Shown here piece after piece: positions 2,420-63,880 of a stretch of DNA of 64,000 bases. The position numbers and the translations under genes were made by a program. Source of the stretch: a phage; NCBI GenBank assembly GCA_037574385.1, contig GCA_037574385.1_4529.1. One strand, given 5' to 3'. The notes beneath the pieces are model-generated. The model was not told the origin of the DNA. It worked only from the letters and a program-made list of their open reading frames with translations, and did not search any database. Each line of letters starts with the position of its first letter. Within the stretch, counting starts at the first letter, position 1.

Positions 2420-2435
2420 AGAGCCCGAAGGCTCT
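2420..2435 (-). terminator. UUCG-tetraloop hairpin (AGAGCC-UUCG-GGCUCU)
   Basis: Perfect 6-bp stem with UUCG loop on the - strand transcript, just after an ORF stop. Confidence 0.5.
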
Positions 2436-2644
2436 TAATCCACAATCGGGAGCAAAGTACGATAAACTTCAAAATTAGGGCCTTTTTCGTACCCATTAAC
2501 GTTATCTACGAAAACCCGATACGAATTTTCATTAGGAAAATCTAATATAATCTGAGAGCAAGAGGTGGAAACATCTCCACCATCCTTCTTAGCTACAATA
2601 ACTGTTTCTAAATAAGCTTTCATTATAAACCTGTCTGGGACCAC
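2435..2644 (-). CDS. Hypothetical small protein
   Basis: 69-aa ORF between ligase and alt; start probably an internal Met (MKAYLE) because the tracked start overlaps the ligase 3' end. Confidence 0.4.
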   Translation of the reverse strand: MVPDRFIMKAYLETVIVAKKDGGDVSTSCSQIILDFPNENSYRVFVDNVNGYEKGPNFEVYRTLLPIVD

Positions 2645-4116
2645 GGTCCAAATACGTCTTCAAACGAATCCGCTTCTGTTTTATCAAAACGGAACCCTTT
2701 AATAATTGGAAGGAAAATACCTACAGTACCTTCACGGCCTTTAGAATGAACCCAACCATTACATTCGCAATCAGCAATACGTCCGATCAATTTACCTTCA
2801 CGAGCTTCGGTCATTAATCGTTCACGGTCTAAATCATGACGCTCGTCTAAAGGAATAAGAACCTTTACACCGTCAACTGTTTTATGAGTTGTATCTTTAA
2901 AACCTGAACCACAATCGGTTGTAATACGACGACAACGTGATACGAGTTCGACACCGCCTAATTTGTTAGGGTCTTTAGAGTGTTCATAGTATCCTACAAC
3001 TTCTAAAGCGATATCAATAACTTCTTTAAATTTAATTAGGTTCTTAGAGCGTTTGTTTTCCCAATATGAATCACGGTTTTTAAGGATAATACCTTCAAGA
3101 CCTTGGTCAACATATTTTTTATAAACCACTTTAGCTTCATCAAGATTACGAACTAACTGGTTTTCGATAGGTTCAATTCGTTTAAAGCCTTCAGCCATAT
3201 TTTCAAGAGCAGCAAAACGAACATCGTATTTCTGACCTTTAATTTTGCCATCAGAATAGACTTCATCTAAAGGAACATAGTCCCAGGCTTGAAGAACCAT
3301 ACCTTCCGCTTCTTTAGGAGAAATAGTCCCTTGAAGAGATTTATTTGCTAAACCATTTGAAGTGCTACGGTCTGCAACTTGTACTTCTTCGGATTCTTCA
3401 TTATCACCAAATAAGAACGACAGGTCATTTCCTGAGCTCACAGCCTTTTTAATATCAAATGAATGATAAACTAATTCACCATCAATTAAAACCCCATTAG
3501 GGTGTCTTTCACGAGCTTCTTTAGTCATTTCCATTAGTTCATCTGCTAATAGGGTAAGACCATGGTATTCGTTACCGGCGCGAGAAAAGAATTGAACACC
3601 ATCATCGCGAACTTCAGCGAAACAACGAGCACCATCTGCTTTTAATTGGGCAAATGCGGGCCATTTAATATTTTTAGTAATCAATTTCTCATCATATGCA
3701 GATGCTAACATCTGTGGTTGCAATTGAATAAGACCAGGCCACACCTTATTCGCGATAGACACTGAAGCACCTACTTCAAGGTCGCGCATCATTACACGAC
3801 GAAGGACTTCTACATCATCAGGTTTACCATCAGCGATATAACCCATGAGCTCTTTAATTGCAGCATTACCAGTGAGTTTACGAGTGGCTAATGTGAACTC
3901 AATAAAATCCAACATGTCATCTAATTCAAGAAGACCATATGCTTGGGACCTTTCACCTGGTCCTGGCCATTTCTTAATATAATACTGGATACCACGTGCA
4001 TATGTTAAACGATACACACGTTCAAGTAATTTGTTGTCCTTATTTTTCTTAAGGATTTCCTGTTTTGTTTTAGTAGAACCGATCGCAGCTATTTGGTTTA
4101 AAATATCTAAAATCAT
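2623..4116 (-). CDS. 30: ATP-dependent DNA ligase
   Basis: 497 aa; adenylation motif KADGAR (KxDG); strong overall resemblance to T4 gp30 (487 aa). Confidence 0.85.
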   Translation of the reverse strand: MILDILNQIAAIGSTKTKQEILKKNKDNKLLERVYRLTYARGIQYYIKKWPGPGERSQAYGLLELDDMLDFIEFTLATRKLTGNAAIKELMGYIADGKPDDVEVLRRVMMRDLEVGASVSIANKVWPGLIQLQPQMLASAYDEKLITKNIKWPAFAQLKADGARCFAEVRDDGVQFFSRAGNEYHGLTLLADELMEMTKEARERHPNGVLIDGELVYHSFDIKKAVSSGNDLSFLFGDNEESEEVQVADRSTSNGLANKSLQGTISPKEAEGMVLQAWDYVPLDEVYSDGKIKGQKYDVRFAALENMAEGFKRIEPIENQLVRNLDEAKVVYKKYVDQGLEGIILKNRDSYWENKRSKNLIKFKEVIDIALEVVGYYEHSKDPNKLGGVELVSRCRRITTDCGSGFKDTTHKTVDGVKVLIPLDERHDLDRERLMTEAREGKLIGRIADCECNGWVHSKGREGTVGIFLPIIKGFRFDKTEADSFEDVFGPWSQTGL

Positions 4117-4382
4117 TTGATGTCCTCGATTTTGGTTACGGTTCTATTATAAGCCACTTCATCTAGAAGCGATTTCAGCGTTTTCTGATAAGTGGTAATC
4201 CGTTTACCGAGTCCTTCAACATAATATTCTGAAATGTAGATAAACCCTTGTTCAACACACTCTTTAAATATTTCTGCGTCTTTTACTGAACGAAACAACG
4301 GCCAGTCTCGAAAGAACATGTTAACGTGACCGTAGTCACGTATGGTATTTTTGCCATCTGTAATATCATGAACTACAAACAT
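4113..4382 (-). CDS. Hypothetical protein
   Basis: 89-aa ORF overlapping ligase start by 4 nt (translational coupling). Confidence 0.5.
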   Translation of the reverse strand: MFVVHDITDGKNTIRDYGHVNMFFRDWPLFRSVKDAEIFKECVEQGFIYISEYYVEGLGKRITTYQKTLKSLLDEVAYNRTVTKIEDIK

Positions 4383-4391
4383 AATTAACCC

Positions 4392-5210
4392 TTAACAATT
4401 TATAGTCCATTTAGACGAATCTAAAGGAAAGTTTTGAATCGTCCACCATGGCTGCATATCGGTTGGTCCTGGGGTTCGCCAGGTATATGGAGTACGTGTT
4501 GTCGAGGGGCCACCAATTTGATTAGGCCATGCACCTGGACTTGTTGCACCAGATTCTTTAAGCAAATCCGCCAATCGTTTTAAAAGGTCTTCACGATCTG
4601 AATCCGAATTATGCTCGGGTGGAACCAAACGAGATTCAATATCATCCCACGTGTGTACACGTTGTGCAGTACGAGGAATATCATCACGTTCACCACGGGC
4701 CAACCAATAAATCGGTACATTAAGAATTTCTGCCGCATGGTCACAATGATGAGCTAAATCGTCAACGTAACAAATTACGTTATATTTTGTTTTAGCTAGT
4801 TCGAATAATTGTTCCTTTGAAGAATCATGACCACACATCATTACTTCAGAGAAAGCGCCTGGGAACAAAGCATTCAAATTAAATTGTCTATTCAATCGAG
4901 CATCAATTGAATCACCTAACGCCGTTACGGCTACAAAATTATAGTCTTCTTTTAGTTTATTGATAACTCGAAGAGCATCCGAATAAGGCGCTAAGTAACG
5001 AATAAAATCAGAGCGATTATATTTTTCTATTAATTGTTTACCAAGGTTATCGTCGGTATTGAATAGTTTACCAGGAGAAATAAATTTTTCGTCCTGAATC
5101 ATTTTTAAAATATGTTCTAATGGAAGATTATATTTTTGGGCAAAATAAGGAAGTCCAGATTGCCAGCTTAAACATACACCATCAATATCAGTCAAAATAG
5201 TAGGCTTCAT
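4392..5210 (-). CDS. HAD-superfamily phosphatase-like protein with Pro/Trp/Thr-rich C-terminal tail
   Basis: 272 aa; HAD motif I ILTDIDGV near N-terminus and a DD motif (ICYVDDLAHH); 4-nt overlap with the downstream NADAR-like gene. Confidence 0.6.
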   Translation of the reverse strand: MKPTILTDIDGVCLSWQSGLPYFAQKYNLPLEHILKMIQDEKFISPGKLFNTDDNLGKQLIEKYNRSDFIRYLAPYSDALRVINKLKEDYNFVAVTALGDSIDARLNRQFNLNALFPGAFSEVMMCGHDSSKEQLFELAKTKYNVICYVDDLAHHCDHAAEILNVPIYWLARGERDDIPRTAQRVHTWDDIESRLVPPEHNSDSDREDLLKRLADLLKESGATSPGAWPNQIGGPSTTRTPYTWRTPGPTDMQPWWTIQNFPLDSSKWTINC

Positions 5211-5864: not shown

Positions 5865-5868
5865 TTTA

Positions 5869-6156: not shown

Positions 6157-6173
6157 AATATTTTCCTCAATAG

Positions 6174-6189
6174 GGAGCCGAAGCTCCCA
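6174..6189 (-). terminator. UUCG-tetraloop hairpin (GGGAGC-UUCG-GCUCCC)
   Basis: Perfect 6-bp stem, immediately followed by the SD of the next gene. Confidence 0.5.
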
Positions 6190-6195
6190 GTTAAA

Positions 6196-6561: not shown

Positions 6562-6602
6562 TTTATTCTCCAGATGTTTAAGTTGTTTGTTGGTACAGGT
6601 CT

Positions 6603-6631: not shown

Positions 6632-6635
6632 TGTT

Positions 6636-7004: not shown

Positions 7005-7045
7005 TTTATTCTCCAGTTTGTTTTATTGATTAGGTGGTACAAGTC

Positions 7046-7075: not shown

Positions 7076-7110
7076 ATCTTTTTAAACTTTTTCTGCCCTA
7101 AACACACAAA

Positions 7111-7130
7111 AGGGAGACCGAAGTCTCCCT
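7111..7130 (-). terminator. UUCG-tetraloop hairpin (AGGGAGAC-UUCG-GUCUCCCU)
   Basis: Perfect 8-bp stem after the small basic protein gene. Confidence 0.5.
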
Positions 7131-7311: not shown

Positions 7312-7683
7312 TATAAATTCTCTTTAAATGAAAATGCAGGACTTATTGACATTGCCTGCTCAAGCCCTCAAGGGGAACATAGGTTTTTGGATATTTAACG
7401 ACCAGGATAACCATAAACCCGTCATCATACCTTATAGCTCTTATCTGTTGCACACCGTTAGCTTAAAGGTTCCGGGTTCGATTTCTCGAGGATAAGATAT
7501 ATACTGATGGATATATAGGCCTTGAGGCGTACTCCCGATTAGCCATCACCTCGGGGTAGCATGCACTTACCGCTATAAGAACAACATTCAAGAGGTACAC
7601 CGTAAAATTGTCGGGGCGGTACTTCTAAAACATACCGATTCGCAAATCGATAATCAGACAATTCGACGGCTCCTCGATTTAAC

Positions 7684-10675: not shown

Positions 10676-10702
10676 TTCAATTTCCTCATTGTTGGTAGAG
10701 TC

Positions 10703-10732
10703 ATCATATCACAACTCTACGGTGTTGTAAAC
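10703..10732 (-). promoter_or_regulatory. Early promoter module with inverted repeat around -10
   Basis: GTTTAC-N18-TATGAT; arms GTAGAGT / ACTCTAC; leader CAACAATGAGGAAATTGAAATG. Confidence 0.5.
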
Positions 10733-11015: not shown

Positions 11016-11240
11016 TCAGTGTACAGTATTTACTTTAACTCGAACAACAAATTGCTCGGTCGGTTCGCCTACAGGAACAAACTCTATATGATATTCGCCT
11101 TTGTAACGAGTATTCAGGTCGTTACGAATTTCGGTAAGCTTGTTGATTAATGTAGAACTCATATTAAGTCCTACTAGTTTACGAAGCATTTTGTATGCTT
11201 CATCTTCGATTTCATGATGTTTATCGTACATAATTTTCAT
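11016..11240 (-). CDS. Hypothetical protein
   Basis: 74-aa ORF. Confidence 0.45.
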   Translation of the reverse strand: MKIMYDKHHEIEDEAYKMLRKLVGLNMSSTLINKLTEIRNDLNTRYKGEYHIEFVPVGEPTEQFVVRVKVNTVH

Positions 11241-12798: not shown

Positions 12799-12826
12799 TT
12801 AGATTTCCTCAATTATCCATAGGAGC

Positions 12827-12856
12827 ATTATACTCTGCTCCCGAGAGTTTGTAAAC
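12827..12856 (-). promoter_or_regulatory. Early promoter module
   Basis: GTTTACAAACTCTCGGGAGCAGAGTATAATGCTCC; near-identical to the module upstream of ndd. Confidence 0.55.
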
Positions 12857-15863: not shown

Positions 15864-15877
15864 GGGACCGAAGTCCC
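15864..15877 (-). terminator. UUCG-tetraloop hairpin between nrdB and denA
   Basis: GGGAC-UUCG-GUCCC. Confidence 0.45.
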
Positions 15878-19394: not shown

Positions 19395-19425
19395 ATTACT
19401 CCAAACGGGATAGTATTTATCCCGT
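19395..19425 (-). promoter_or_regulatory. 9-bp perfect inverted repeat in nrdA leader
   Basis: AACGGGATA-AATAC-TATCCCGTT between a TATAAT-like element and the nrdA SD. Confidence 0.4.
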
Positions 19426-19455
19426 TAATTTATTATACACTTTTAAACTGAAGCG

Positions 19456-21407: not shown

Positions 21408-21469
21408 TTTATTCTCCTTCACTTTTGATTTGATAGGGCTACTATAACATAACCCTATCTGATTATACA

Positions 21470-21951: not shown

Positions 21952-21969
21952 GGGAGACCGAAGTCTCCC
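21952..21969 (-). terminator. UUCG-tetraloop hairpin after gene 32
   Basis: GGGAGAC-UUCG-GUCUCCC directly after the gp32 stop. Confidence 0.55.
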
Positions 21970-29117: not shown

Positions 29118-30242
29118 ATGGAAAAATTTATGGCAAGGTTTGGACAGGGATACGTCCAAACGCCATTTTTATCGGAAAGCAATTCAGTTAGATTTAAACT
29201 AAGTATAGCGGGTTCATGCCCGCTTTCAACAACTAATCCGTATATTTTGTTCCAAAATGAGCCTTTAGGGTTGCAGTCTTTTGGTATTGGACTAAATGTT
29301 AGGGTAATAAATCCGGAAAATGGAACTATAGTTGATAGTAAATTATACAATTTTGCGCCTACAAATAATGCAACTTCAGCTGCATTTATTTCGTTTGTTA
29401 ATACATACGCAGATAATTTCATTTTCGCATTTATTTCTAATAACAAATTTAATTTGCCGCCAGAAATAATTGAATGGTTTAAAGCTGCTGGGAGTTCAGT
29501 TATACCGTCAATTGAAGTTGCTAGTCTTGTTGATATTTCATATTCAGCGTTTTATGTTTCAGGTAAAAATACTATTGCATTAGAACACATAAAATACAGT
29601 AATAAGAAAACAATTTCGGATTACTCAACTCCATTAGATATTGTATATGACTCTATTGCTGATATAGGTGCTACCGGCTATCCTAGACGTACATATGAAG
29701 CTCTAGAAACGTTTTTATCTCCTGTTGGAGGAACTAACAATGAAATAAAAAGGGTGCCTACATCATCCCTTGTTACTCCTATCGCAAACTATGGATTAAA
29801 GCCTACAGATTTTCTTTATTTGAAATTTCAATTAATGGCTGATGAAGCATTACTAGAGGAAGGAACCACAAGACTTTCAATTCGTTTCTTTAAGTCTCCA
29901 TCTAGCTCTCCTATATCGTCTAAAGATATAAACTTTGACGGAACTGCTGGTGAATGGAAGCTATATGAAGAATACGTTGAAATACCAGCTGAAGCCGATG
30001 GCTTTACAGTATATTGTTACCGTACGGCCCCAGTCGGTCAAGGTGGACTAAGAAATGTTATTTTTACTGAAGTATCATGTAACGGAAGTATAGCAAAACC
30101 TGCCGAGTTTGGCCTAAATGGTATTCGTGCTAATTACATCGATGAATCATTAACCGGTAATGATATAATGGACTTGCCTACTCAGTTATCTAACGACACA
30201 GGTAAGGTATTTGGGCAGGAATTTAAAGAGTACACAGAATAA
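29118..30242 (+). CDS. 35: Long tail fibre hinge protein gp35
   Basis: 374 aa; position and size as T4 gp35. Confidence 0.75.
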   Translation: MEKFMARFGQGYVQTPFLSESNSVRFKLSIAGSCPLSTTNPYILFQNEPLGLQSFGIGLNVRVINPENGTIVDSKLYNFAPTNNATSAAFISFVNTYADNFIFAFISNNKFNLPPEIIEWFKAAGSSVIPSIEVASLVDISYSAFYVSGKNTIALEHIKYSNKKTISDYSTPLDIVYDSIADIGATGYPRRTYEALETFLSPVGGTNNEIKRVPTSSLVTPIANYGLKPTDFLYLKFQLMADEALLEEGTTRLSIRFFKSPSSSPISSKDINFDGTAGEWKLYEEYVEIPAEADGFTVYCYRTAPVGQGGLRNVIFTEVSCNGSIAKPAEFGLNGIRANYIDESLTGNDIMDLPTQLSNDTGKVFGQEFKEYTE

Positions 30243-30265
30243 AGGAGGCTTCGGTCTCCTTTTCG
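30243..30265 (+). terminator. Intrinsic terminator-like hairpin after gene 35
   Basis: + strand GGAGGC-UUCG-GUCUCC followed by UUUUCG. Confidence 0.5.
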
Positions 30266-34215: not shown

Positions 34216-34220
34216 TAAAA

Positions 34221-34240
34221 GGGCCTTCGGGCCCTGGAGG
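34221..34240 (+). terminator. UUCG-tetraloop hairpin after gene 37
   Basis: + strand GGGCC-UUCG-GGCCC, followed by SD GGAGG of gene 38. Confidence 0.5.
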
Positions 34241-35058: not shown

Positions 35059-35730
35059 ATGGGAGGTAATATGGCAGCACCAAAAGTATCATTTTCGCCT
35101 AGTGATATTTTATTTGGGTTGCTAGACCGCATTTTCAAAGATAACGCCTCTGGAAATATTCTTATTTCCAGAGTTGCTGTTGTAGTTCTTTTGTTCCTAA
35201 TGGCACTAATATGGTACAAAGGGAGTATTTTTATGGATTATTACGTGAGGTCGAAATATGATACTTACACAGAAGTAATTCAAAAAGAAAGAAATACACG
35301 ATTTGAATCTGCGGCTTTAGAACAACTACAAATAGTCCACGTCACATCAAGGGCGGATTTTAGTTCGGTGTATTCTTTCAGACCTAAAAATCTAAATTAT
35401 TTCGTCGACCTTATTGCGTATGAAGGTAAGTTACCTAGCACAGTAACTGAAAAATCTATGGGAGGATTTCCTGTCGATAAAACTACAGCAGAATATTCGG
35501 TCCATTTAAGTGGACTTCACTTTACTTCTAAAACAGATTTTGCTTTCTTACCTACCAAATCAAAAACTCCGGAACTGGCATATATGTATAGTTGTCCTTA
35601 CTTCAATTTGGATAACATATATGCTGGAACTGTTTCTATGTATTGGTATAAGGGGTCGGATGTGTTAAATGAAGAACGCTTGGCAGCAATATGCAACCAA
35701 GCAGCAAGGATATTAGGGCGGGCTAAATAA
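35059..35730 (+). CDS. t: Holin T
   Basis: 223 aa; close match to T4 T holin (SFSPSDILFG.LDR.FKDNA.G, YMYSCPYFNLDNIYAGT, AARILGRAK). Confidence 0.9.
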   Translation: MGGNMAAPKVSFSPSDILFGLLDRIFKDNASGNILISRVAVVVLLFLMALIWYKGSIFMDYYVRSKYDTYTEVIQKERNTRFESAALEQLQIVHVTSRADFSSVYSFRPKNLNYFVDLIAYEGKLPSTVTEKSMGGFPVDKTTAEYSVHLSGLHFTSKTDFAFLPTKSKTPELAYMYSCPYFNLDNIYAGTVSMYWYKGSDVLNEERLAAICNQAARILGRAK

Positions 35731-38574: not shown

Positions 38575-38609
38575 AGAAAAAAAAATGCACAAAAGGGAGC
38601 TTCGGCTCC
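38575..38609 (-). terminator. Intrinsic terminator after gene 52 (hairpin plus U-tract)
   Basis: - strand GGGAGC-CGAA-GCUCCC followed by UUUUGUGCAUUUUUUUUUUCUC. Confidence 0.55.
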
Positions 38610-38686
38610 CTAATCGTGATTGTCCAACCAATACAGCCAAATCACTAGTGCAGCTATTGCACCGAGAAATCCTAAGGCTAAGGCAC

Positions 38687-40012
38687 TCAAAGTGCCTCCA
38701 AGTCTTTAGTGTACTCTGTCACAACATCGGTAGACTTCCAATACTCATTTTCTTCTTTCTTAGCTTTAGCTTCTTCTGCTAGTTTACGTGCTTCATCGGA
38801 AGTGATATGGAAGATGTTAAGACCTACCAGTTTATCAACATGTTCTTTATACATTTCGATTTGTGCTAGCTCTTCAGTCAAAGCTTTACGAGTCTTGCCC
38901 TGAATCACAATTTCACCACTGATAACTTTTTTGATGAAGTGTGCCTTAGCAAAAGCAAGTTTAAATGCTTTTTCAGATTCAAGGATTTTGTTGTCAATAC
39001 GTTTCTGAACGTAAGTCTTACGGACTTCAACAAAATCTTTGATTAAGTCTACTACATTATCGTAGACCGCTAATTTACCTTTTTCATTAATCACTGTGAT
39101 GTTTTGTGAACGACGTTCGATGAGACTAAAATCTTTCATGATTTTTTCATGACGTAGCTCTTCATCGTCTGGAAGCGAGTACTCTTTACGGAACTTCACC
39201 TTAAACCCAAATCCATGTTCACCACAATCATCTTCCCATGAGATTAGACCTTTATCTTCTAATGGGTCAAGAACCTTACTCACATACGTTTCACGGTCGA
39301 ATTTATATGGGATTTCAGTTATCTGCATTTGAGTACGAGATGTGAACTTATATGTTCCGTGAATCTCATAACGCCCATCAACTTCATGTACTTCACCACG
39401 GAATTCCGGGAATTCAACTTTTGGCTTAGTGACATTTTTACCTTGAAGAGCTTGTAATACAGCCTTTTTGACTGATTTAAAACTATGAGGCAGAATATTT
39501 GTTGCATAACCGGTTGCAATACCGGAGACACCATTCAAAAGAACTGTCGGAATAATAGGAAGATAGAATTTTGGTGGAATATGTTCTTTATCTTCATGAG
39601 TTGGAGCATATTCGGTATCTTTATAGACATTATAGAAATTTTTGCTTACACGAGCAAAAATATAACGAGATGCCGCAGCTTTTTGGACTGTTCTAGAACC
39701 AAAGTTGCCTTGGCCATCTAACAGTGGATAGTTGTTGTTCCATGTGTTAGCCATTAATGCACCTGCATCTTGTGCAGAAGATTCACCATGGTGATAACCT
39801 AAATCTGCAACACCACCCGCAATTGACGCAAGTTTATGAAATTTTTCTTTATTACCACGAGCCAAATCTAACGCACGATGGACCACAAAACGTTGAACCG
39901 GCTTAAATCCATCAATCATGTTTGGGATTGCACGGTTTTCAACGGTGTACATCGCATATGCTAAGGCTTCGTTATCAATAATACTTTTTAGATTACGAGA
40001 ATTCAATTGCAT
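38687..40012 (-). CDS. 52: DNA topoisomerase II medium subunit gp52 (GyrA-like)
   Basis: 441 aa (T4 gp52 442 aa); GyrA-like N-terminal region; position next to motA. Confidence 0.8.
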   Translation of the reverse strand: MQLNSRNLKSIIDNEALAYAMYTVENRAIPNMIDGFKPVQRFVVHRALDLARGNKEKFHKLASIAGGVADLGYHHGESSAQDAGALMANTWNNNYPLLDGQGNFGSRTVQKAAASRYIFARVSKNFYNVYKDTEYAPTHEDKEHIPPKFYLPIIPTVLLNGVSGIATGYATNILPHSFKSVKKAVLQALQGKNVTKPKVEFPEFRGEVHEVDGRYEIHGTYKFTSRTQMQITEIPYKFDRETYVSKVLDPLEDKGLISWEDDCGEHGFGFKVKFRKEYSLPDDEELRHEKIMKDFSLIERRSQNITVINEKGKLAVYDNVVDLIKDFVEVRKTYVQKRIDNKILESEKAFKLAFAKAHFIKKVISGEIVIQGKTRKALTEELAQIEMYKEHVDKLVGLNIFHITSDEARKLAEEAKAKKEENEYWKSTDVVTEYTKDLEAL

Positions 40013-40016: not shown

Positions 40017-40157
40017 TCACCATATTAATGAACGAATAACCATTATAACATCTGAAATGAAAAGCACTACTTGGATTAGTCCAAACATCACACCGTAGTA
40101 CAGAACCGTAAGCAACAACAAGAGCCCGAAGGCTCCTGTTAAGATTTTCTTAATCAT
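40017..40157 (-). CDS. Small hydrophobic membrane peptide (46 aa)
   Basis: Hand-called: MIKKILTGAFGLLLLLTVLYYGVMFGLIQVVLFISDVIMVIRSLIW; start overlaps stop of the upstream small ORF (TAATG). It contains a UUCG hairpin in its coding sequence, so it may instead be non-coding. Confidence 0.35.
   Translation of the reverse strand: MIKKILTGAFGLLLLLTVLYYGVMFGLIQVVLFISDVIMVIRSLIW
40122..40135 (-). terminator. UUCG-tetraloop hairpin (lies within candidate small ORF)
   Basis: GAGCC-UUCG-GGCUC on - strand. Confidence 0.35.
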
Positions 40158-40802: not shown

Positions 40803-40846
40803 GCTAATTTCCTCAATTGATTAATGTTTTTGTAATCCATGAGAGC

Positions 40847-40876
40847 ATTATACTCTGCTCTCAAGAGTTTGTACAA
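40847..40876 (-). promoter_or_regulatory. Early promoter module upstream of ndd
   Basis: TTGTACAAACTCTTGAGAGCAGAGTATAATGCTCTC; GAGAGC/GCTCTC flank the -10. Confidence 0.55.
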
Positions 40877-41593: not shown

Positions 41594-41661
41594 GATGTTA
41601 TCCTCTTTTAGATAGGACTACTGTATCATAGTCCTACTTAGTTGTAAACACTTTTATGAAA

Positions 41662-42461: not shown

Positions 42462-42477
42462 GGGGACCGAAGTCCCC
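42462..42477 (-). terminator. UUCG-tetraloop hairpin after rIIB
   Basis: GGGGAC-UUCG-GUCCCC just after the rIIB stop. Confidence 0.55.
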
Positions 42478-43427: not shown

Positions 43428-45641
43428 TTATTTGGCCGCTTCCACGGCCTTCATGAATTTAACGATTTGAGCGACTTGTTCTTTAGAAAGAGTACCACGT
43501 CGTCCCATGTATTCTGACACAATATGATAATTGGTTTCGAATTCAATAACCATTTTATCATCATTATCGTAAGCATTATCTTTAAGCTTATCGAAAATTT
43601 TAGCACACAATTCTAACTTTTTATTCAGTTCTCTGTTAGTAGCACCTGAGAATCGATTCCATCCCCAACGATTATTTACCGTTGAGAGTTTTGCAAAATC
43701 TTTACTGATTTCTTTGTTTTTAGAGCTAAAATACTTACTAAGGAAGTTAAGCTCTTCGTTACGAGTAATATGATTCAAATAAGGCTGTGCTCTACGACTT
43801 GGTGATACATACTCATCATAATCCACTTTATCAATTAGCGTAATATAGTCATTAATTGATTTTTCGAACAAGCATTCTACTTCGCCAAGTTTACGAACTT
43901 TCTTAGCAATCTGTGGACGAACTACAGTGAACTCTTTAATACCTGACAAATCAGCAATACGGGTCAAGAAATTGGAGTCATAGTTCAACCAACCTTTATC
44001 TGCGTCAAGACATTCAGCATTAGAACGATTACGAACTATAGCATAACCTTGGATTTCATCTGCTTCACTTGCTGGAATAAAGAGGTCTTCTGATACCCAA
44101 ACATCGTTTTCATTCTTAAAGAATCGATGAGCACTTGGCGATTTAGGACGAGGCTCATTAGTCCGTTTCCTGACTTCAATCCATGGCTTAACGATTTGTA
44201 AAAGCTCTGAAGTCTTGTACATGTTAATGTTGTCGCCGTCAAAGATAACTTTAAGGCGTTCCAGAAGTTTCATTGCATCTTCGTCTGTAGGGTCAACGAA
44301 TAGTACGCTTTTACCAAAACCGCGTGGAACTTTACCGGTTAATTTAACCTCGTCTTTAGACATTTCAATTGAATTAAGAGCTCGCATTAATGGAACGCGT
44401 CCCTTAACGTCGTCAATAACAATTTCAACGTTTTTAATGTTAATGCCAATCAGGCTGTTAATTGAAATAGTTGATGATGAGCTACCACTTTCACGAATAC
44501 GACGAAGACGAGGGGATTCAACGATATCGTATACGACGCCAAGATTACACCACTCAGGCCCCATTTTAAAACGTTTATACAACTCAGAATAAGTTAGTTG
44601 TTCTTTAGAGTATTTCAGTGATTCAATATTAGACCCAGCCTTTTCCATGTATTTACGAGCGGTATAGCCAAGAGAATCAATTTCACGGAACACATGACGT
44701 GGGTATTTACAATCAATCCATTTCTTAGAATCTTCAGCGAACAATTTAGCATCGATTTCTGCAACGCGTTTATGGATATTTGCTACTGTACGTTTATCAA
44801 ACGACAATGCTTCACGAGACGGAGCTACATCTAGTTCACCCATAGGGAATTTAATATAAGCTGTAGTGCATCGTGTCATCATCCATGTTTGTTCTTTAAT
44901 AACACTTCCGATTGGATAAACAATACCACCATAAACAGCCATGATATTACCACGTTCACCCCGTGGAGCTTCCTTGGCCAAATATACATCGTCAAATTCT
45001 GGGAAGTATTTAATATCTTTAACACCACGAACTTCTGCTATATCACCTAAAGGACGCATAACATATGCAATTTCAGATGCGAACTTTTCAAAATCTTCTG
45101 GGTTAACCGGTACGACTACTTCTACACCCGTACGGTCATCAGGACCCATCTTATCTACAAAGGTTGGCTTAATTTGAGGACCCGTGTCATCTTGGTAGAT
45201 TACGTAACCACGAACTTCACCGTTGTGATAAGACGTAAGGTTAAACGTATCGGTATATGCTAGCGGAGCTTTAGAGCCGAGCCCGAATCCACCAATGAAA
45301 TCGTTGCTCGATGTTTTAGTTGAAGCAAAATATGAGTTATAGATTCCTGGCTCTTCGTCATTACCTCGAATAGTGAAATCACTCATACCAGGACCAAAGT
45401 CTCGAACTACAAAACGTGGGTCTAAACGACCTGGAGCCTGAACAATAAACTTATCAGTGCAACCGTTAAGAATTTGTCCATCAATACAGTTTGTGATTAA
45501 TTCACGTACACAAGCCAATTCTTTGTTTGTATAAAGGTCATTAGACAAAATCTTATAAACTTTGCTATTGCCTTGAATAGTGAATGCTGTACTCTTACCG
45601 CCTGAACCAATAATCGTTTCTTTAGCCGTTTCAATAATCAT
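43428..45641 (-). CDS. rIIA: rIIA protein (GHKL ATPase-like)
   Basis: 737 aa (T4 rIIA 725 aa); adjacent to rIIB. Confidence 0.85.
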   Translation of the reverse strand: MIIETAKETIIGSGGKSTAFTIQGNSKVYKILSNDLYTNKELACVRELITNCIDGQILNGCTDKFIVQAPGRLDPRFVVRDFGPGMSDFTIRGNDEEPGIYNSYFASTKTSSNDFIGGFGLGSKAPLAYTDTFNLTSYHNGEVRGYVIYQDDTGPQIKPTFVDKMGPDDRTGVEVVVPVNPEDFEKFASEIAYVMRPLGDIAEVRGVKDIKYFPEFDDVYLAKEAPRGERGNIMAVYGGIVYPIGSVIKEQTWMMTRCTTAYIKFPMGELDVAPSREALSFDKRTVANIHKRVAEIDAKLFAEDSKKWIDCKYPRHVFREIDSLGYTARKYMEKAGSNIESLKYSKEQLTYSELYKRFKMGPEWCNLGVVYDIVESPRLRRIRESGSSSSTISINSLIGINIKNVEIVIDDVKGRVPLMRALNSIEMSKDEVKLTGKVPRGFGKSVLFVDPTDEDAMKLLERLKVIFDGDNINMYKTSELLQIVKPWIEVRKRTNEPRPKSPSAHRFFKNENDVWVSEDLFIPASEADEIQGYAIVRNRSNAECLDADKGWLNYDSNFLTRIADLSGIKEFTVVRPQIAKKVRKLGEVECLFEKSINDYITLIDKVDYDEYVSPSRRAQPYLNHITRNEELNFLSKYFSSKNKEISKDFAKLSTVNNRWGWNRFSGATNRELNKKLELCAKIFDKLKDNAYDNDDKMVIEFETNYHIVSEYMGRRGTLSKEQVAQIVKFMKAVEAAK

Positions 45642-45946: not shown

Positions 45947-47047
45947 TTACGCTGTGAAGATTTTATCCCACATTGCAACAACTGCATCTCGGTTATACTT
46001 CTTCCATACTGCTTCAGCACGTTTAACTCGAGCTTCGTATGTGTCAGTGAATTCTAATACAGCTTTTGTGTAAAGCGCAACTACTTCTTTCTTAGGAGTA
46101 GAGGAATCAATTTCTACACGCACAGTATCTGGGTCATATTCGAATGTCGCATGCGGATAATCCTTAAAAACTAACTGAATTACAGGGACACCTTTAGAAA
46201 TGGCTTCAATAGAACTATTCTCTACCGTACCTGTGTCAGGACACGTATTAATAAGTGCTTTAGCTGTTTTAAGACGTTCCATAATTTCACTGTGTGGAGC
46301 ATCAATAATAACAGGATACTTAGCCGGTGGTGCCCATTTACTAGGACAGTATCCTGCGCCATTTTCGCCTAGTGCTTTAATCGCTTCAAGAGCAACATCA
46401 GTACGACGCATTTTAGTGTCATAACGTTGTGCACTAATAATCAGATCAGTCGCCGGAAGAACTTCAGGTTTCTCATTCAAACAAATAACCGGATAATCTT
46501 CGGCTTCAAACAACGGATTTGCTCGCCAATAATCATAATCAATTTTGTCAGTCAGACCTGAAGTCATATAACAATATTTGCGTTCAAATTCACGGAAGGC
46601 TTTAGTAGGAGCATAACTCTTACCACCGTTCTTATGAATTTGAATAGTCTGGTCCCAAATTTGAACAATGCCACGAGATACCGGCTCAAACGGTGTTGCC
46701 ATAAAATTCTTATGAACTTTAGAGAGACCTGCGTCTTTAATTGCCTGAACGGTTAGTTTAGTCGGTTCCATTGTAACAACGAAATCGTACTCATTAATGC
46801 CGGCTAGTTCAACAATCTTACGAGCCATAGTATAACTCATACCTAGACTGAATTTAGTCAGATGACCAACAGGATGATGATTAACCTTCCAATCACCAAA
46901 CGTGTCATTATCAAAGCCGATATAATCAATATCAGCACCGATGGACACAAGATATTTCAACACATTTAAATGTACTGCTTCAAGACCACCTTGTACACGT
47001 TCTGGGTTAAACGGGACTGCGCGAGATGGGATAAACATAACTTTCAT
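45947..47047 (-). CDS. GT-B fold glycosyltransferase (GT4-like); candidate DNA hypermodification enzyme
   Basis: 366 aa; N-terminal MKVMFIPSRAVPFNPERVQGGLE and C-terminal TCPDTGTVENSSIEAISKGVPVI resemble GT4 donor-binding motifs; sits where T4 carries gene 60/mobA. Confidence 0.6.
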   Translation of the reverse strand: MKVMFIPSRAVPFNPERVQGGLEAVHLNVLKYLVSIGADIDYIGFDNDTFGDWKVNHHPVGHLTKFSLGMSYTMARKIVELAGINEYDFVVTMEPTKLTVQAIKDAGLSKVHKNFMATPFEPVSRGIVQIWDQTIQIHKNGGKSYAPTKAFREFERKYCYMTSGLTDKIDYDYWRANPLFEAEDYPVICLNEKPEVLPATDLIISAQRYDTKMRRTDVALEAIKALGENGAGYCPSKWAPPAKYPVIIDAPHSEIMERLKTAKALINTCPDTGTVENSSIEAISKGVPVIQLVFKDYPHATFEYDPDTVRVEIDSSTPKKEVVALYTKAVLEFTDTYEARVKRAEAVWKKYNRDAVVAMWDKIFTA

Positions 47048-47074
47048 AATTAAGCCTTATTAAAATTAAAATGA

Positions 47075-47090
47075 AGCTCCCGAAGGAGCT
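47075..47090 (-). terminator. UUCG-tetraloop hairpin after gene 39
   Basis: AGCUCC-UUCG-GGAGCU overlapping the gp39 stop. Confidence 0.5.
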
Positions 47091-48907
47091 TAGGACATCC
47101 ATTCTTTACGAAGTTCTGAATCATCACCCAACAACATTTCAAAGAGTTCTTTCCAATTTTCAGGAAGTTTAACTACGTCGTACACAGGGTTTTGAATCAT
47201 TTCACGATATTCTGACTTTTCAAGGGAGCCCAATCCCTTGATGTATCGAATACTATGCTTAGGCAGTGTATCTTTAGCTTCTTCATACTCAGCTACAGTA
47301 TAAAACCATTTTTGAGTTTTGCCGATTTGTGCAATAATTACAGGTGTTTTAACAAAGCGAATACGTCCTTGTTCAAACAATTCAGGCCAATTACTAAAGA
47401 AAGCAAGCAAAGCCGGATAGATACTTCCAAGACCGTCATGATCGGCATCGGTCATAATTGCAATATTACGATAGTTCGTATTCTCTGCCTTTTCACCAAG
47501 AATAAGACCTGTGATAGCACAGATATCAAAGAGCTCTTTGTTCTTCATCATATCGGCATATGACATACCCCAGCTATTCATCACCTTACCACGTAATGGG
47601 AATCCGCCGTGTAGTTCACGGTCACGAACATCAATGAGATATCCAATTGCCGAATCACCTTCTGTTAAAAACAATGTCGTATCTGCATCTTTACCGCATT
47701 GGTTAGCTTTAATATGCTTATGAACCTTAGCTTTAGTTGCCTTTTTAGCTGCTTTAGTTTCTGCAGCCTTTTCTGCTGCCAATTTACGAGCTAATGCTGC
47801 TTCAACAATAGGCATAATCAAGGCTTCGTTTTTAAGAAGTGCCTGAGCAATTTTCTTAGCATCTAATTGGATATGATTACGAATATCACCATACGTTGAC
47901 GTTAAACGTTCTTTAGTCTGAGAATCAAAACGCATGTTGCTCATGTCTCTAATAAACATCAACATTGTGAGACATTCTTTAACACGAGCTTTAGTGACTT
48001 CAATACCCTTATATTTCTTTTTAATACCCGGCAAAAGATGTTCGCAAATATCATCCATTACACATTCAACATGATGACCACCATTTTTAGTATGGATGTT
48101 ATTCACATAAGTTAAATGACGGAAGCCATCCGGTGATGTTGTGAATGCTATAGAGACTTTATCATTTTCTTGAATGATGTTATCTTCACCAAATTGTTTA
48201 GCAAATCGTTTAAAATTGCCATCAACCTTTTTACCATTAAATGTGAACTTGATATCAGGATAAACGACTGCCAATGTTTGAAGTCGGTCTAAAGTAATAT
48301 CTAAATAAATTTGAGATAAATTATGCTCTTCAAATGAAGTGAAATCAGGAGTGAAGATTACTTTAGTGCCTTTACCTTTAGATTTCTTAGAAGACCATGA
48401 TTTGTTTTCCATTCCGTTTGAACAGTTAACAGTGATTTCATTTTCGCCATCTGACGTGATGCCTGTAAACAACGTAGAGAAGATATTAGTTAAACTACTC
48501 CCGACGCCGTTCATACCACCTGTCTTGCGTTCAGAGTCGTCACCAAAGTTACCACCGGCCTTTGGAATAGTCCAGGCTGCTACAGGCCCAGGAATTTGTT
48601 CACCCGTTTGGTCGGTAACTAAACCTTGAGGAATACCACGTCCGTTATCTTCCACTGAAACTTGATTATTTTTAATTTGCACATCAATTTTATTTGCAAA
48701 CTTAAATGATGTACGAATAGCTTCATCAACCGAGTTGTCAATAATCTCATCGATTAATTTAACCAGACCAGGAACATATTCAACTTGTTGATATTTACCA
48801 AACAAAAAACGCTCATGTGCTTCTTTAGCTGAAGAACCAATATACATACCACTACGTTTCTTAATATGTTCTACATCTGACAGTACCTTAATTTCATTTT
48901 TAATCAT
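47090..48907 (-). CDS. 39: DNA topoisomerase II large subunit, fused gp39+gp60 (GyrB-like)
   Basis: 605 aa in one ORF; GHKL ATPase N-terminus (DNSVDEA, GRGIP) plus Toprim region; T4 splits this into 39 (516 aa) and 60 with a translational bypass. Confidence 0.85.
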   Translation of the reverse strand: MIKNEIKVLSDVEHIKKRSGMYIGSSAKEAHERFLFGKYQQVEYVPGLVKLIDEIIDNSVDEAIRTSFKFANKIDVQIKNNQVSVEDNGRGIPQGLVTDQTGEQIPGPVAAWTIPKAGGNFGDDSERKTGGMNGVGSSLTNIFSTLFTGITSDGENEITVNCSNGMENKSWSSKKSKGKGTKVIFTPDFTSFEEHNLSQIYLDITLDRLQTLAVVYPDIKFTFNGKKVDGNFKRFAKQFGEDNIIQENDKVSIAFTTSPDGFRHLTYVNNIHTKNGGHHVECVMDDICEHLLPGIKKKYKGIEVTKARVKECLTMLMFIRDMSNMRFDSQTKERLTSTYGDIRNHIQLDAKKIAQALLKNEALIMPIVEAALARKLAAEKAAETKAAKKATKAKVHKHIKANQCGKDADTTLFLTEGDSAIGYLIDVRDRELHGGFPLRGKVMNSWGMSYADMMKNKELFDICAITGLILGEKAENTNYRNIAIMTDADHDGLGSIYPALLAFFSNWPELFEQGRIRFVKTPVIIAQIGKTQKWFYTVAEYEEAKDTLPKHSIRYIKGLGSLEKSEYREMIQNPVYDVVKLPENWKELFEMLLGDDSELRKEWMS

Positions 48908-48956: not shown

Positions 48957-48972
48957 AAGGGCCGAAGCCCTT
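48957..48972 (-). terminator. UUCG-tetraloop hairpin
   Basis: AAGGGC-UUCG-GCCCUU. Confidence 0.45.
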
Positions 48973-50009: not shown

Positions 50010-50263
50010 TAAGTTGTACCATTTTCAGTGATTTCACGGAAGATACCATAGATAGGCATTTCATCACCGAGTTTTTCGTAAACGTAAACCACTTCAGTGT
50101 AGCATAAAAATTCAGTCCAGTTTTTCTGTACAACAACTAAATCAGGATTAAACAGAACATCTTCAAACTCATCGATGTTTGAATCAGTAGTTACGTTTTT
50201 AATGATTTGACGTTTCATAATATTCTCCTCTTGTTTTGATAGGTCTATAGTATCATAGACCAT
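49991..50263 (-). CDS. Hypothetical protein
   Basis: 90-aa ORF with PeSL-type promoter upstream. Confidence 0.5.
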
Positions 50264-57954: not shown

Positions 57955-57985
57955 CGAAAAAAAAAAGGAATCCCGAAGGATTCCT
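57955..57985 (-). terminator. Strong intrinsic terminator after soc
   Basis: AGGAAUCC-UUCG-GGAUUCCU (8-bp stem) followed by a 10-nt U-tract. Confidence 0.7.
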
Positions 57986-57993
57986 TAAATTAT

Positions 57994-60380: not shown

Positions 60381-60419
60381 AGTATTCTCCAGAGGCCTTA
60401 AATTAATAAGGCCATCATA

Positions 60420-61104: not shown

Positions 61105-61105
61105 T

Positions 61106-62051: not shown

Positions 62052-62114
62052 TTTAACTCCTTAGTTGATTTGATAGGACTACTATACTATAGTCCATCTA
62101 TAATGTAAACAAGT

Positions 62115-62363: not shown

Positions 62364-62424
62364 GTTAATTTCCTCTTGATTTGTTATGTTTATAGTATCT
62401 TGTTTTAACTTTGGCGTAAACCAA

Positions 62425-62793
62425 TTAATTAAATTTGTTTAAACGTTCAATACACTGGACGTAGTTATTCGCGATTTGTTTCTGGGTAGGCTCTTTACCA
62501 GTTGTTTCAATATAGCGAATGAATGCGATTTCAGTAGCCTGTAAGCAATGTTCTTTAACGCGTTGTTCTTTTGTCAATGCTACAGTATCAGAATCACGAT
62601 AACGTTGAGCATGGGCATCAGCTTGAATCATTCGATTACCTACAGTAACCGGGTCTTCCACTTCAACTTTAGGTTGGTTGTACTGTTTAACATTCGGGTT
62701 ATAAATCAATTGGCCAACATTATTAGGGATAAAGCCGTGAGCACCACATCCAGTTAATCCGAATACCATTGCTAAAGCGATTAATTTTTTCAT
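62425..62793 (-). CDS. Putative lipoprotein
   Basis: 122 aa; signal peptide with lipobox LTGC. Confidence 0.55.
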   Translation of the reverse strand: MKKLIALAMVFGLTGCGAHGFIPNNVGQLIYNPNVKQYNQPKVEVEDPVTVGNRMIQADAHAQRYRDSDTVALTKEQRVKEHCLQATEIAFIRYIETTGKEPTQKQIANNYVQCIERLNKFN

Positions 62794-62864
62794 TTCAATT
62801 TCCTCTGTAGTTGATAAAAAGATAGTAACACAGTATGTGGTGCTTGTAAACAGTTATTTTAAAA

Positions 62865-63074
62865 TTATCGAAAATCAGCTTCAAAAACTTTCTCGTCATT
62901 AATAAATGCTTTAACAAGTGCACTGTTCACTTCGGCGAGTTGTACCGCAACCCACTCGATTTCTTCACGATCACCTGATAACATGATATCTTTAGTGAAC
63001 ATCTCACCACTTTTAAACCAGCCAATAAAAGTAATTTTAGTTAATTTGCTCATATTTCCTCGCAAAATGCCCAT
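62865..63074 (-). CDS. Hypothetical small protein; weak positional candidate for Dmd (RnlA/LsoA antitoxin)
   Basis: 69-aa tracked ORF (about 62 aa from internal Met MSKLTKITFIGWF); size near T4 Dmd (60 aa) and in the 61-41 interval; identity unverified. Confidence 0.3.
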   Translation of the reverse strand: MGILRGNMSKLTKITFIGWFKSGEMFTKDIMLSGDREEIEWVAVQLAEVNSALVKAFINDEKVFEADFR

Positions 63075-63367
63075 TCAGCGTGATAAACTGTAGCACCTTT
63101 AGTATCGTTCATTTGAACTACGTCTACCGGAGAAATTACTCGATAGAGACGTGGTTCACCTCCATAAGAGCGTGCTGCTCGTCCTGCATAAATCTTTGCT
63201 AAACCGATATCTTCAGTAAAGAATACACGATTCAAGTTTTTCTTACGTCCAGTTTCAGACAGAACTCCTGTTTCTTCAGGAGGACAAAGCATGTTTTCGA
63301 TGTTAGCTGAACTACTTGAACCGTGATAAAAAATCTTAAATTCTGCTTTACAATCGATGGTTTTCAT
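63050..63367 (-). CDS. Hypothetical protein with H-G-S / Y / E pattern
   Basis: 105 aa; FYHGSSS, KIYAG and YHAEW elements occur in the order seen in H-Y-E class ADP-ribosyltransferase folds, but the protein is short; tentative. Confidence 0.4.
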   Translation of the reverse strand: MKTIDCKAEFKIFYHGSSSSANIENMLCPPEETGVLSETGRKKNLNRVFFTEDIGLAKIYAGRAARSYGGEPRLYRVISPVDVVQMNDTKGATVYHAEWAFCEEI

Positions 63368-63422
63368 TTTGTTCTCCAGTAGTTGATAGGTCTATAATAA
63401 CACAACTACTGGAGAAGTAAAC
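63368..63422 (-). promoter_or_regulatory. Early promoter module with 14-bp inverted repeat pairing spacer to SD region
   Basis: GTTTACTTCTCCAGTAGTTGTGTTATTATAGACCTATCAACTACTGGAGAACAAAATG; arms TTCTCCAGTAGTTG / CAACTACTGGAGAA. Confidence 0.5.
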
Positions 63423-63797
63423 TTAAAAACGTAATTTAGATATATCTGCGTTGATTTCGTTTTGGTTTGCGTCGTATGCAATTAAACGAACCGCTTTAGA
63501 TGGGTCATTCAATGCATAGAAATGATGGAACATTGCTCGAACGATATCACCATTTACGAGTTCTACCTGGATAGGAGAACCTTTTTCTAGTTGGAAATGT
63601 TCATAAGCTTTGATGGTTCGCAGATAATCAAGTTTTTGATTTCCGGCTCCAACAATTTGTACGATACGTTTGCCCATGTTTTCCATACGAGATACAATAG
63701 TTTTAGGAGCAAGAATAACGTAGGTTGCCAACGGAGAAACTACTTCAACAGTTGTGTTTTCGGTGATTGCAGTAAAAATTGCTTGAGACATATTCAT
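63423..63797 (-). CDS. Hypothetical protein
   Basis: 124-aa ORF with PeSL-type promoter upstream and UUCG hairpin after the gene 41 stop. Confidence 0.5.
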   Translation of the reverse strand: MNMSQAIFTAITENTTVEVVSPLATYVILAPKTIVSRMENMGKRIVQIVGAGNQKLDYLRTIKAYEHFQLEKGSPIQVELVNGDIVRAMFHHFYALNDPSKAVRLIAYDANQNEINADISKLRF

Positions 63798-63862
63798 AAT
63801 GTTTTCCTCTTGGTTGGTGTAAGTACATCATATCATGCCTAGAGGAAGATGTAAACCCCGAA

Positions 63863-63880
63863 AGGAGACCGAAGTCTCCT
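63863..63880 (-). terminator. UUCG-tetraloop hairpin after gene 41
   Basis: AGGAGAC-UUCG-GUCUCCU just after the candidate gp41 stop. Confidence 0.5.

Follow-up and report, generated by a model that had tools for sequence, protein, structure and literature searches.

The 64-kb window analysed here (the whole stretch of 64,000 nucleotides, contig GCA_037574385.1_4529.1 of GenBank assembly GCA_037574385.1) belongs to a Mosigvirus, an RB69-like T-even phage, and is 96-98% identical to ESh27, phiC120 and ChristianSchoenbein among Mosigvirus genomes. It carries 14 short G/C-rich hairpins in which a UUCG tetraloop is closed by a C-G pair. Hairpins of this C(UUCG)G type were found in the intercistronic mRNA of T4 in 1988 (Tuerk et al., PNAS 85:1364, as cited in PMC4371310 and PMC3972237). 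We consider it probable that those in the window function at the RNA level, mostly as intrinsic terminators or attenuators of transcription, and that a minority close to ribosome-binding sites (RBS) do not terminate. The hairpins are real and highly non-random, but they are a class already known, and most of the sites have already been predicted as terminators in RB69.

The window has a G+C content of 37.8% and is about 93% coding. An exact scan for a TTCG or CGAA loop on a perfect stem of at least 5 bp gave 14 places. A scan tolerant of G.U pairs added 30241-30262 and extended 40122-40135 to 40116-40141. Two UUCG matches were set aside as likely chance, both inside an open reading frame (ORF): the one at 4410 is rich in A and U and closed by an A-U pair, and the one at 25021 has a 4-bp stem. 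This leaves the final set of 14, of which 13 have perfect stems of 5-9 bp and one, 30241-30262, has a single G.U pair. CTTCGG or CCGAAG is present in all 14, the stems are 5-11 bp long when the extended one is included, the closing pair is C-G without exception, and the folding energies run from -7.5 to -15.9 kcal/mol. In 300 shuffles that preserved dinucleotide composition, the mean number of perfect TTCG or CGAA stems of at least 5 bp was 0.67 (standard deviation 0.86, maximum 5), against the 14 in the window. There are 107 perfect tetraloop hairpins in the window altogether, and the next commonest loop, counted with its complement, occurs four times.

The position of the hairpins is equally uniform. 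All except one are clear of ORFs or share just 2 nt with a stop codon, and the same number (13/14) begin between -2 and +9 nt relative to a stop codon. UUCG is on the mRNA strand in 13/14, the exception being the hairpin at 38594, between genes 52 and motA, where the mRNA has CGAA. A preliminary description, made from the sequence alone, had reported at least 14 G/C-rich UUCG or CGAA stems between 2420 and 63880, and the scan positions agree with both the number and the range. It had also called the stems perfect and placed them right after stop codons. The former is correct for all except 30241-30262, and the latter for all except 40116-40141, which is inside ORF 52.1.

Tails, promoters and conservation

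Purines predominate in the 5' arms, whose consensus is A(A/G)GGAG(A)C, and pyrimidines in the 3' arms, which often lead into U residues. Counting U in the 8 nt past the last G-C pair, and including any U paired at the base of the stem, at least five are present in 10 of the 14 (2419, 7111, 15864, 21952, 38594, 40116, 42462, 47074, 48957 and 57965). The count is 4 for 30241 and 3 each for 6173, 34220 and 63861. The combination of a G/C-rich hairpin and an adjoining U-rich tract is clear for 7111, 21952, 38594, 42462, 48957 and 57965. The preliminary description had allowed a clear U-tract only to the soc and gene 52 hairpins, an estimate that is too low because it counted only the U beyond the stem. 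Its "gene 52" hairpin (38594) does have a U-rich tail, and in fact follows a 26-codon motA.1-like ORF, with CGAA on the mRNA strand.

A general terminator scan was too permissive in such A+T-rich sequence, finding 13-26 sites where 12-13 are expected, and the tails were scored separately instead. A d'Aubenton-Carafa-type score, used as a ranking, is positive for 2419, 6173, 7111, 21952, 38594, 40116, 42462, 48957 and 57965, and ranks as clearly terminator-like the hairpins of soc, rIIB, 30.9, 32 and 52/motA and the one upstream of gene 39.

Promoter motifs of the T4 early, middle or late type are found 5-36 nt downstream of eight hairpins (2419, 7111, 21952, 30241, 38594, 48957, 57965 and 63861). 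The early motif TTTAC(A/T)-N16-18-TAnnnT, of which there are only 27 in the window on both strands, follows 7111, 21952, 38594, 57965 and 63861. The exact late motif TATAAATA after 30241 is one of only six in the window, and a version with one mismatch follows 2419. A middle motif with a MotA box overlaps the tail of 48957. In four cases (6173, 34220, 42462 and 47074) a Shine-Dalgarno sequence (SD) and AUG come directly after the hairpin. On this basis the hairpins were classed as A (terminator followed by promoter), B (stop codon, hairpin, SD and AUG in that order) or C (candidate split RBS and/or attenuator), as listed in Table 1.

Table 1. The fourteen C(UUCG)G hairpins of the window and the motA.1-like ORF. 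Junctions are written as upstream gene>downstream gene, and stem-loops as 5' arm-loop-3' arm. Gene names were transferred from the annotation of Mosigvirus relatives, RB69 and T4. Variants are given as number with a stable hairpin; with U-tract; with UUCG.
Feature	Position	Strand	Stem-loop and following sequence	Class	Promoter motif downstream	Variants at orthologous junctions	RB69 TransTerm site	Remarks
alt.1>alt	2419..2436	-	AAGAGCC-UUCG-GGCUCUU then UUUGGCA	A	late-promoter-like CATAAATA/TATAAATT, 5-11 nt	10 of 10; 6/10; 9	alt<--alt.1	stop codon overlaps stem by 2 nt; stems differ in relatives; T4 has ATTAAAGGCC-UUCG-GGCCTTTAAT
30.7>30.6	6173..6188	-	GGGAGC-UUCG-GCUCCC then UAUU-GAGG-AAAAUAUU-AUG	B		11; 0/11; 5		no U-tract; loops in relatives UUCG, UACG, GAAA, UUCA; SD GAGG 2-6 nt past stem
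30.9>30.8	7111..7130	-	AGGGAGAC-UUCG-GUCUCCCU then UUUGUGUGUUU	A	early-promoter-like TTTACT..N..TACTAT, 36 nt	12; 12/12; 6	30.8<--30.9	
nrdB>denA	15864..15877	-	GGGAC-UUCG-GUCCC between UAAGGAC and ACUUUAUU-AUG (denA start)	C		19; 13/19; 17		
32>	21952..21969	-	GGGAGAC-UUCG-GUCUCCC then UUUUGAGU	A	early-promoter-like, 32 nt	48 of 55 (within 40 nt of gp32 stop); 44/48; 23	yes	
35>36	30241..30262	+	AAAGGAGGC-UUCG-GUCUCCUUU, tail UCGCG	A, weak U-tract	exact late TATAAATA, 5 nt	26; 23/26; 15		one G.U pair; stop codon overlaps stem; most variants then have TATAAATA
37>38	34220..34235	+	AGGGCC-UUCG-GGCCCU then GGAGG-UUUUU-AUG (gene 38)	B				RB69 has GAGGGGC-UUCG-GCCCCUU; T4 has AGAGGGGC-UUCG-GCCCUUCU between SD and AUG, the documented gene 38 split RBS (PMC3014915)
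52/motA	38594..38611	-	AGGGAGC-CGAA-GCUCCCU (mRNA) then UUUGUGCAUUUUUUUUU	A, inverted loop	early, 29 nt		motA<--52	UUCG antisense
motA.1-like ORF	38610-38690	-						26 codons, MSALALGFLGAIAALVIWLYWLDNHD, TTG start; overlaps end of gene 52, ends in stem of 38594
ORF 52.1	40116..40141	-	UAACAGGAGCC-UUCG-GGCUCUUGUUG					11 bp including 2 G.U; perfect core 40122-40135; codons 6-14
rIIB>	42462..42477	-	GGGGAC-UUCG-GUCCCC then UUUUUCUUU-AGGGG-UAAUU-AUG	A (U-tract) and B (adjacent SD)		26; 15/26; 21		many different stems in relatives
39>	47074..47091	-	AAGCUCC-UUCG-GGAGCUU then CAUUUUAAUUUUAAUAAGG..AUG	B		8; 1/8; 1	score 97	stop codon overlaps stem; U-rich in window, yet junction conserved as non-terminator hairpin; non-UUCG hairpin directly before SD in other genera
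upstream of 39	48957..48972	-	AAGGGC-UUCG-GCCCUU then UUUGCUUUAG	A	middle, MotA box, TGCTT-N14-TAGAAT, overlapping tail		yes	T4 39.1>39 has AAGGCC-UUCG-GGCCUU
soc>	57965..57986	-	AAGGAAUCC-UUCG-GGAUUCCUU then UUUUUUUU	A	early, 19 nt	30; 30/30; 24	yes	top terminator score in window
41>	63861..63882	-	AAAGGAGAC-UUCG-GUCUCCUUU then CGGGG		early TTTACA-N17-TATGAT, 5 nt; hairpin abuts -35	26; 9/26; 11	ORF041c<--41	no U-tract

The same junctions were compared across genera of the Tevenvirinae. Loci around gp32, gp52, gp30 and gp41 were taken from IMG/VR (the gp41 query came from locus L001), the upstream stop codon at each junction was located by tblastn, and the most stable local hairpin downstream of it was recorded. 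RB69 has the same hairpins at the matching places, with a few compensated changes. After 30.9, 32, 35 and soc, hairpin and U-tract are kept together in 88-100% of variants, and the gene 32 series extends to genomes with only 38% identity in gp32. Where the loop at an orthologous site is not UUCG, it is mostly another UNCG loop (UACG, UCCG), a GNRA loop (GAAA, GCAA, GAGA) or a lineage-specific pentaloop. After gene 41, T4-like lineages have a promoter-overlapping stem-loop instead. The stems themselves vary greatly from genus to genus, their two arms remaining complementary. In alignments made by taking the best hairpin of every junction, 100% of cells are paired for gene 32 and both sides have changed in 6 of 7 pairs; the nrdB>denA alignment has 97.9% of cells paired, with a change on both sides in 4 of 6 pairs. 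The covariation score of these two alignments was reached by none of 500 shuffles, and slid registers scored far lower.

For RB69, Nolan et al. (2006, PMC1524935, supplement 6) list a TransTerm prediction at 10 of the 14 junctions. The same authors noted conserved terminators after gene 32, upstream of alt, and between 35 and 36, the last in all six genomes that they compared. Where hairpin and U-tract are conserved together and a promoter comes next, the hairpins are most simply read as sites at which the host RNA polymerase terminates or is attenuated, at the boundaries of transcription units. Conservation at 30.7>30.6, 39> and 37>38 is limited to the hairpin and its place beside the SD, and here a non-terminating role is therefore likelier.

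Terminators, stabilisers or DNA repeats

On the reading that we prefer, the hairpins would form in the RNA once transcribed, rather than in the DNA. Some 8-10 of the 14 would act on E. coli RNA polymerase as intrinsic terminators or attenuators of graded strength, namely those at 2419, 7111, 21952, 30241, 38594, 42462, 48957 and 57965, with 47074 and 63861 as weaker candidates. The succession of stop codon, hairpin and promoter would insulate one transcription unit from the next, and the released RNA would then end in a hairpin that blocks 3' exonucleases. A minority would be non-terminating hairpins adjacent to an RBS, namely 6173, 34220 and those of the gene 39 junction taken as a class. Once the transcript has been cleaved, they may protect the 3' end of the upstream cistron or the 5' end of the downstream one; alternatively, they may prevent competing structures from forming in the initiation region. 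The structures, with their enrichment, strand bias, positions, conservation and covariation, are shown by the sequences, and termination, RNA stabilisation and effects on translation are inferred.

Several points weigh against this reading. A literature search found no Term-seq or other 3'-end mapping for T4-type phages, and a hairpin with a U-tract has been reported to be insufficient for predicting the efficiency of termination (bioRxiv 10.64898/2026.05.29.728758). The terminator score mixes modern folding energies with a discriminant from 1990, and serves for ranking only. U-tracts are short or interrupted at 30241, 47074, 63861 and 2419. After rIIB, alt.1 and 41 it is the hairpin that is conserved and not the U-tract (15/26, 6/10 and 9/26), so that the conserved requirement at these junctions is the hairpin itself. 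Because the covariation alignments were made from the best hairpin per junction, some of their high pairing is a product of the way in which they were made. What counts as independent evidence is the presence of a hairpin at nearly every orthologous junction, set against a background in the window of about one comparably stable hairpin per 940 nt per strand.

The preliminary description took most of the hairpins for mRNA stability or processing elements rather than terminators. Such elements would lie within long polycistronic transcripts, as barriers to 3' exonucleases or as protectors of 5' ends. For the majority of sites we think this unlikely, the evidence against it being the U-rich tails in 10/14, the promoter motifs directly downstream of eight, the U-tracts conserved at four junctions, and the published RB69 predictions. 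For three to five of the 14 it is plausible, and to this extent the preliminary description was right that some hairpins are not classical terminators: the U-tract is missing at 6173, 34220 and 63861, hairpins are conserved with hardly any U-tracts at 30.7>30.6 (0/11) and 39> (1/8) with the next SD always directly after, and the hairpin is better conserved than the U-tract at the three junctions named above. T4 UUCG stem-loops containing GGAG are also reported to resist cleavage by RegB (PMC1702504). Stabilisation is plausible too as a second role of the terminators, the two functions being compatible because a terminator hairpin becomes a protective 3' end.

Both of these readings place the hairpins in RNA between cistrons, as the preliminary description had done, and this part of it is borne out by the sense-strand UUCG in 13/14. 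It would be quite different if they were primarily inverted repeats in the DNA, either cruciforms or sites of recombination and module shuffling like the PeSL (promoter early stem-loop) cassettes of T4-type phages, with a role in RNA only secondary. We regard this as very improbable, in spite of three observations that favour it. Stems are shared about three times as often by hairpins of one genome as by hairpins of different genomes (9.7% and 3.2%), inversion of a loop between close relatives requires an event in the DNA between the arms, and PeSL stem-loops do mediate recombination (PMC2839356, PMC4122927). A DNA inverted repeat, however, has no reason to keep its loop in one orientation. 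The loop and its closing pair are moreover exactly those that maximise the stability of an RNA hairpin, the substitutes at orthologous sites are other stable RNA loops (UNCG and GNRA), and the positions are tied to stop codons, U-tracts, SDs and promoters. Selection on the stability of an RNA hairpin, and not on a DNA palindrome, is shown by the bias in strand, by a closing pair that is C-G throughout and by substitutes that are themselves unusually stable RNA loops. It is more likely that recombination is a side effect, which homogenises and flips the hairpins, than that it is their function. Chance, or the composition of an A+T-rich genome with short palindromes, may well account for the two matches set aside at 4410 and 25021; as an explanation of the set it is already refuted by the shuffle test, by the presence of 13 of the 14 in non-coding sequence, which makes up only some 7% of the window, and by conservation of the hairpins at orthologous sites across dozens of genomes, where changes in the stems are compensated.

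Two other roles were considered and rejected. The stems are far too short for RNase III sites. GGAG is present in the stem of 8/14 hairpins, as might suit a target or decoy for RegB, but structured GGAG sites are RegB-resistant (PMC1702504). The GGAG content is better explained by the purine-rich 5' arms, which pair with C/U-rich 3' arms leading into the U-tract.

The nrdB-denA junction and the recurrence of stems

The hairpin between nrdB and denA is the only one in class C. Twenty distinct junction sequences were resolved, and 19 of them share the order UAA-GGA(G)-hairpin-5 to 9 nt-AUG, with a gap of 24-32 nt from the nrdB stop codon to the denA AUG, and of exactly 26-27 nt in 14 of the 19. 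The SD-like GGA overlaps the nrdB stop codon, and in the distinct junction sequences examined the denA AUG has no SD at the usual distance. Folding of the hairpin shortens the spacing between GGA and AUG from 23 to about 9 nt. By analogy with known cases, the hairpin would most likely bring the upstream SD-like GGA(G) near the denA AUG, in the manner of a split RBS. It may also attenuate transcription, which is a competing or additional reading because 13/19 variants are U-rich past the stem.

The known cases are the split SDs of T4 genes 38 and 25, in which, as at nrdB>denA, a stable hairpin lies between a distant SD-like element and the start codon and reduces the spacing from 22 to 5 nt (gene 38) or from 27 to 11 nt (gene 25) (PMC3014915). 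Unlike these two, denA has a U-rich spacer after the hairpin in many lineages, so that the hairpin could also terminate, and for some lineages weak pairing is possible between the GGA(G) and the U-run. A 2010 review gives genes 38 and 25 as its sole examples of a split SD, with denA not among them (PMC3014915; work of Nivinskas et al. 1999, and Malys and Nivinskas 2009). An incomplete literature search turned up no earlier account of a denA/nrdB hairpin in connection with a Shine-Dalgarno sequence.

In T4 the loop at this junction is GCAA (locus L003, 18925-18958). The RefSeq start of T4 denA is a GUG 3 nt past the nrdB stop, within the 5' arm of the hairpin. All other lineages have a conserved AUG about 27 nt downstream, followed by codons for MK(D/E). 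From the sequences this suggests that the conserved AUG is the likelier T4 start, and that the RefSeq GUG is eight codons too far upstream. If the split SD is real, the annotated GUG, being inside the stem, would be wrong.

A second feature of the hairpins concerns the way that they change. At 52/motA the stem is identical, and the flanks are 88-94% identical over 131 nt, in the window, RB69, phiE142, ChristianSchoenbein and locus L087. The loop, on the other hand, is CGAA in the window and RB69, and UUCG in phiE142, L087 and ChristianSchoenbein (loci L001, L087 and L113, the last being phiE142). The soc hairpin shows the same switch: its loop is CGAA at locus L183 and UUCG at L178, and likewise AGAA at L163 and UUCU at L162. 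Four loop bases have thus switched together to their reverse complement, which fits a single inversion between the arms.

Stems also recur within a genome. The hairpins of 30.9, 32 and 41 in the window share the stem GGGAGAC, and in T4 GGACUCC is found after both 30.9 and soc, and AAGGCC at both alt.1 and 39.1. Among 15 genomes, two hairpins of one genome have the 6-nt arm in common in 9.7% of pairs, and two hairpins of different genomes in 3.2% (permutation p about 2e-4). PeSL cassettes of T4-type phages are known to recombine, with one crossover described inside the loop (PMC2839356, PMC4122927), and by analogy a PeSL-like recombination could explain both the inversion of loops and the recurrence of stems. 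A lineage-specific sequence preference shared by the sites is a possible alternative explanation for the recurrence.

Taken together, we tentatively propose that nrdB-denA is a third split SD region, conserved among genera of the Tevenvirinae, and that terminator hairpins evolve in concert within genomes by PeSL-type recombination. We would call this joint proposal possible, and rather more open to doubt than the reading of the hairpins as terminators. Both parts may be undescribed and are modest leads. If true, they would add modestly to what is known of translation control and of the recombination of regulatory modules in T4-type phages, and would extend PeSL-type recombination to UUCG terminators.

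Genome context and comparison with known systems

All genes in the window are on the minus strand except for those between 25.2 and 35.7 kb, which are on the plus strand. The first part contains alt, 30, rIII, 31, cd, pseT, alc, rnlA, denA, nrdB, nrdA, td, frd, 32, 59, 33, dsbA and rnh. The plus-strand genes in the middle are the tail-fibre genes 34-38, followed by t. The last part has asiA, motA, 52, ac, ndd, denB, rIIB, rIIA, 39, dexA, dda, modA/B, soc, 56, 61 and the end of 41. Gene 39 is present in its unsplit, 605-residue "60plus39" form, and the gene 60 bypass hairpin, which is a UUCG hairpin in T4, is absent for this reason. A gene of 366 residues at 45947-47047, between gene 39 and rIIA.1, is annotated in a relative as a putative hydroxymethylcytosine (hmC) arabinosyltransferase; T4 has gene 60 and mobA in this interval instead. 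Between 30.9 and rIII there is a stretch of 372 nt (7312-7683) with no convincing ORF and a T-arm-like GGTTCGA on the plus strand. ARAGORN and Rfam gave no match to this stretch, and its folding is no better than that of shuffles (z = -0.29). In the window as a whole, nothing was found by ARAGORN or by Rfam at gathering thresholds.

Two small ORFs touch the hairpins. The motA.1-like ORF occupies the position of T4 motA.1 and is without annotation in RB69 and ChristianSchoenbein. ORF 52.1 (40017-40157) and its orthologues are small membrane-protein ORFs, with a stable hairpin 15-45 nt into the gene in several genera. The stems of these hairpins differ, their energies range from -9 to -17 kcal/mol, and the residues that they encode vary with the lineage (GAFGLL, GYSLAL, IAALVAA, IVAAIAAA). 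The hairpin is either a by-product of Gly, Ala and Leu codons or a selected structure.

Other stable hairpins are present in the window. Eight on the minus strand (10695-10720, 11152-11174, 12821-12842, 21433-21458, 40840-40863, 41612-41637, 50242-50261 and 62076-62095) hold an early-promoter -10-like hexamer in the loop, as in GGGAGCAGAG-TATAAT-GCTCCT. The same arrangement, with compensated stems, is found after gene 41 in T4 and other lineages. These hairpins match the published PeSL cassettes (PMC2839356, PMC4122927), and form a set separate from the UUCG hairpins. The longest perfect tetraloop hairpin in the window is an 11-bp inverted repeat in the holin gene t (35148-35173, CTCTGGAAATA-TTCT-TATTTCCAGAG, -14 kcal/mol). 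On the minus strand there is GGCCGU-GGAA-GCGGCC where rIIA ends, immediately ahead of the rIIB SD (43434-43449); AACGGGAUA-AAUAC-UAUCCCGUU between nrdA.2 and nrdA (19404-19426), a TransTerm site in RB69; and a 7-bp non-UUCG hairpin just before the gene 61 SD (60392-60416).

The main finding is of limited importance in itself, since it re-identifies in an RB69-like genome a textbook feature of T-even mRNA. The hairpins are nevertheless useful, because they mark the boundaries of transcription units and aid the annotation of small ORFs and start codons, as with denA, the motA.1-like ORF and 30.9. The comparison across genera separates junctions that keep hairpin and U-tract from those that keep only the hairpin, and so provides candidates for roles other than termination.

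The hairpins of the window resemble the C(UUCG)G hairpins of T4 in their loop, C-G closing pair, short G/C-rich stems, intercistronic position and phage group. In the comparison of positions with T4 that the preliminary description proposed, five junctions are shared: T4 has UUCG at alt.1>alt, 30.9>, 37>38, 39.1>39 and soc>, and has none after 32 and 41. The stems differ at every shared junction, and there are about 13 hairpins in the 64 kb here compared to 8 in the 76 kb of syntenic T4 sequence. UUCG at genes 32, 41 and 30.7 is present in the phage of the window and absent from T4, and T4 has a GCAA loop at nrdB>denA.

In the G/C-rich stem, the 4-nt loop, the U-rich tail in 10/14 and the location at the ends of transcription units, the hairpins are like the Rho-independent terminators of E. 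coli, as they are in the A-rich 5' flanks that pair with the U-tract. They differ in that three or four have no U-tract and several have an SD 2-10 nt downstream. Placed in a lacZ reporter, an intergenic stem-loop of the T4 type was roughly equal to rrnB T1 in ending transcription (PMC2839356), and the intergenic UUCG stem-loops of T4 have been termed terminators (PMC1702504).

With the PeSL cassettes (Arbiol et al. 2010, PMC2839356; Comeau et al. 2014, PMC4122927) the UUCG hairpins have in common that they are intergenic, repeated, recombination-prone units of terminator and promoter. The stem-loop of a PeSL usually lies between the -35 and -10 elements or over the -10, whereas the UUCG hairpins of the window lie 5-36 nt upstream of the -35.

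Intercistronic hairpins that stabilise 3' ends are found in bacterial operons, among them the repetitive extragenic palindromic (REP) elements of malE-malF and the hairpins of the puf operon. The hairpins at 6173, 34220 and the gene 39 junction are like these in being stable structures without a U-tract between co-transcribed cistrons, and unlike them in having far shorter stems (5-9 bp) with a tetraloop at the tip.

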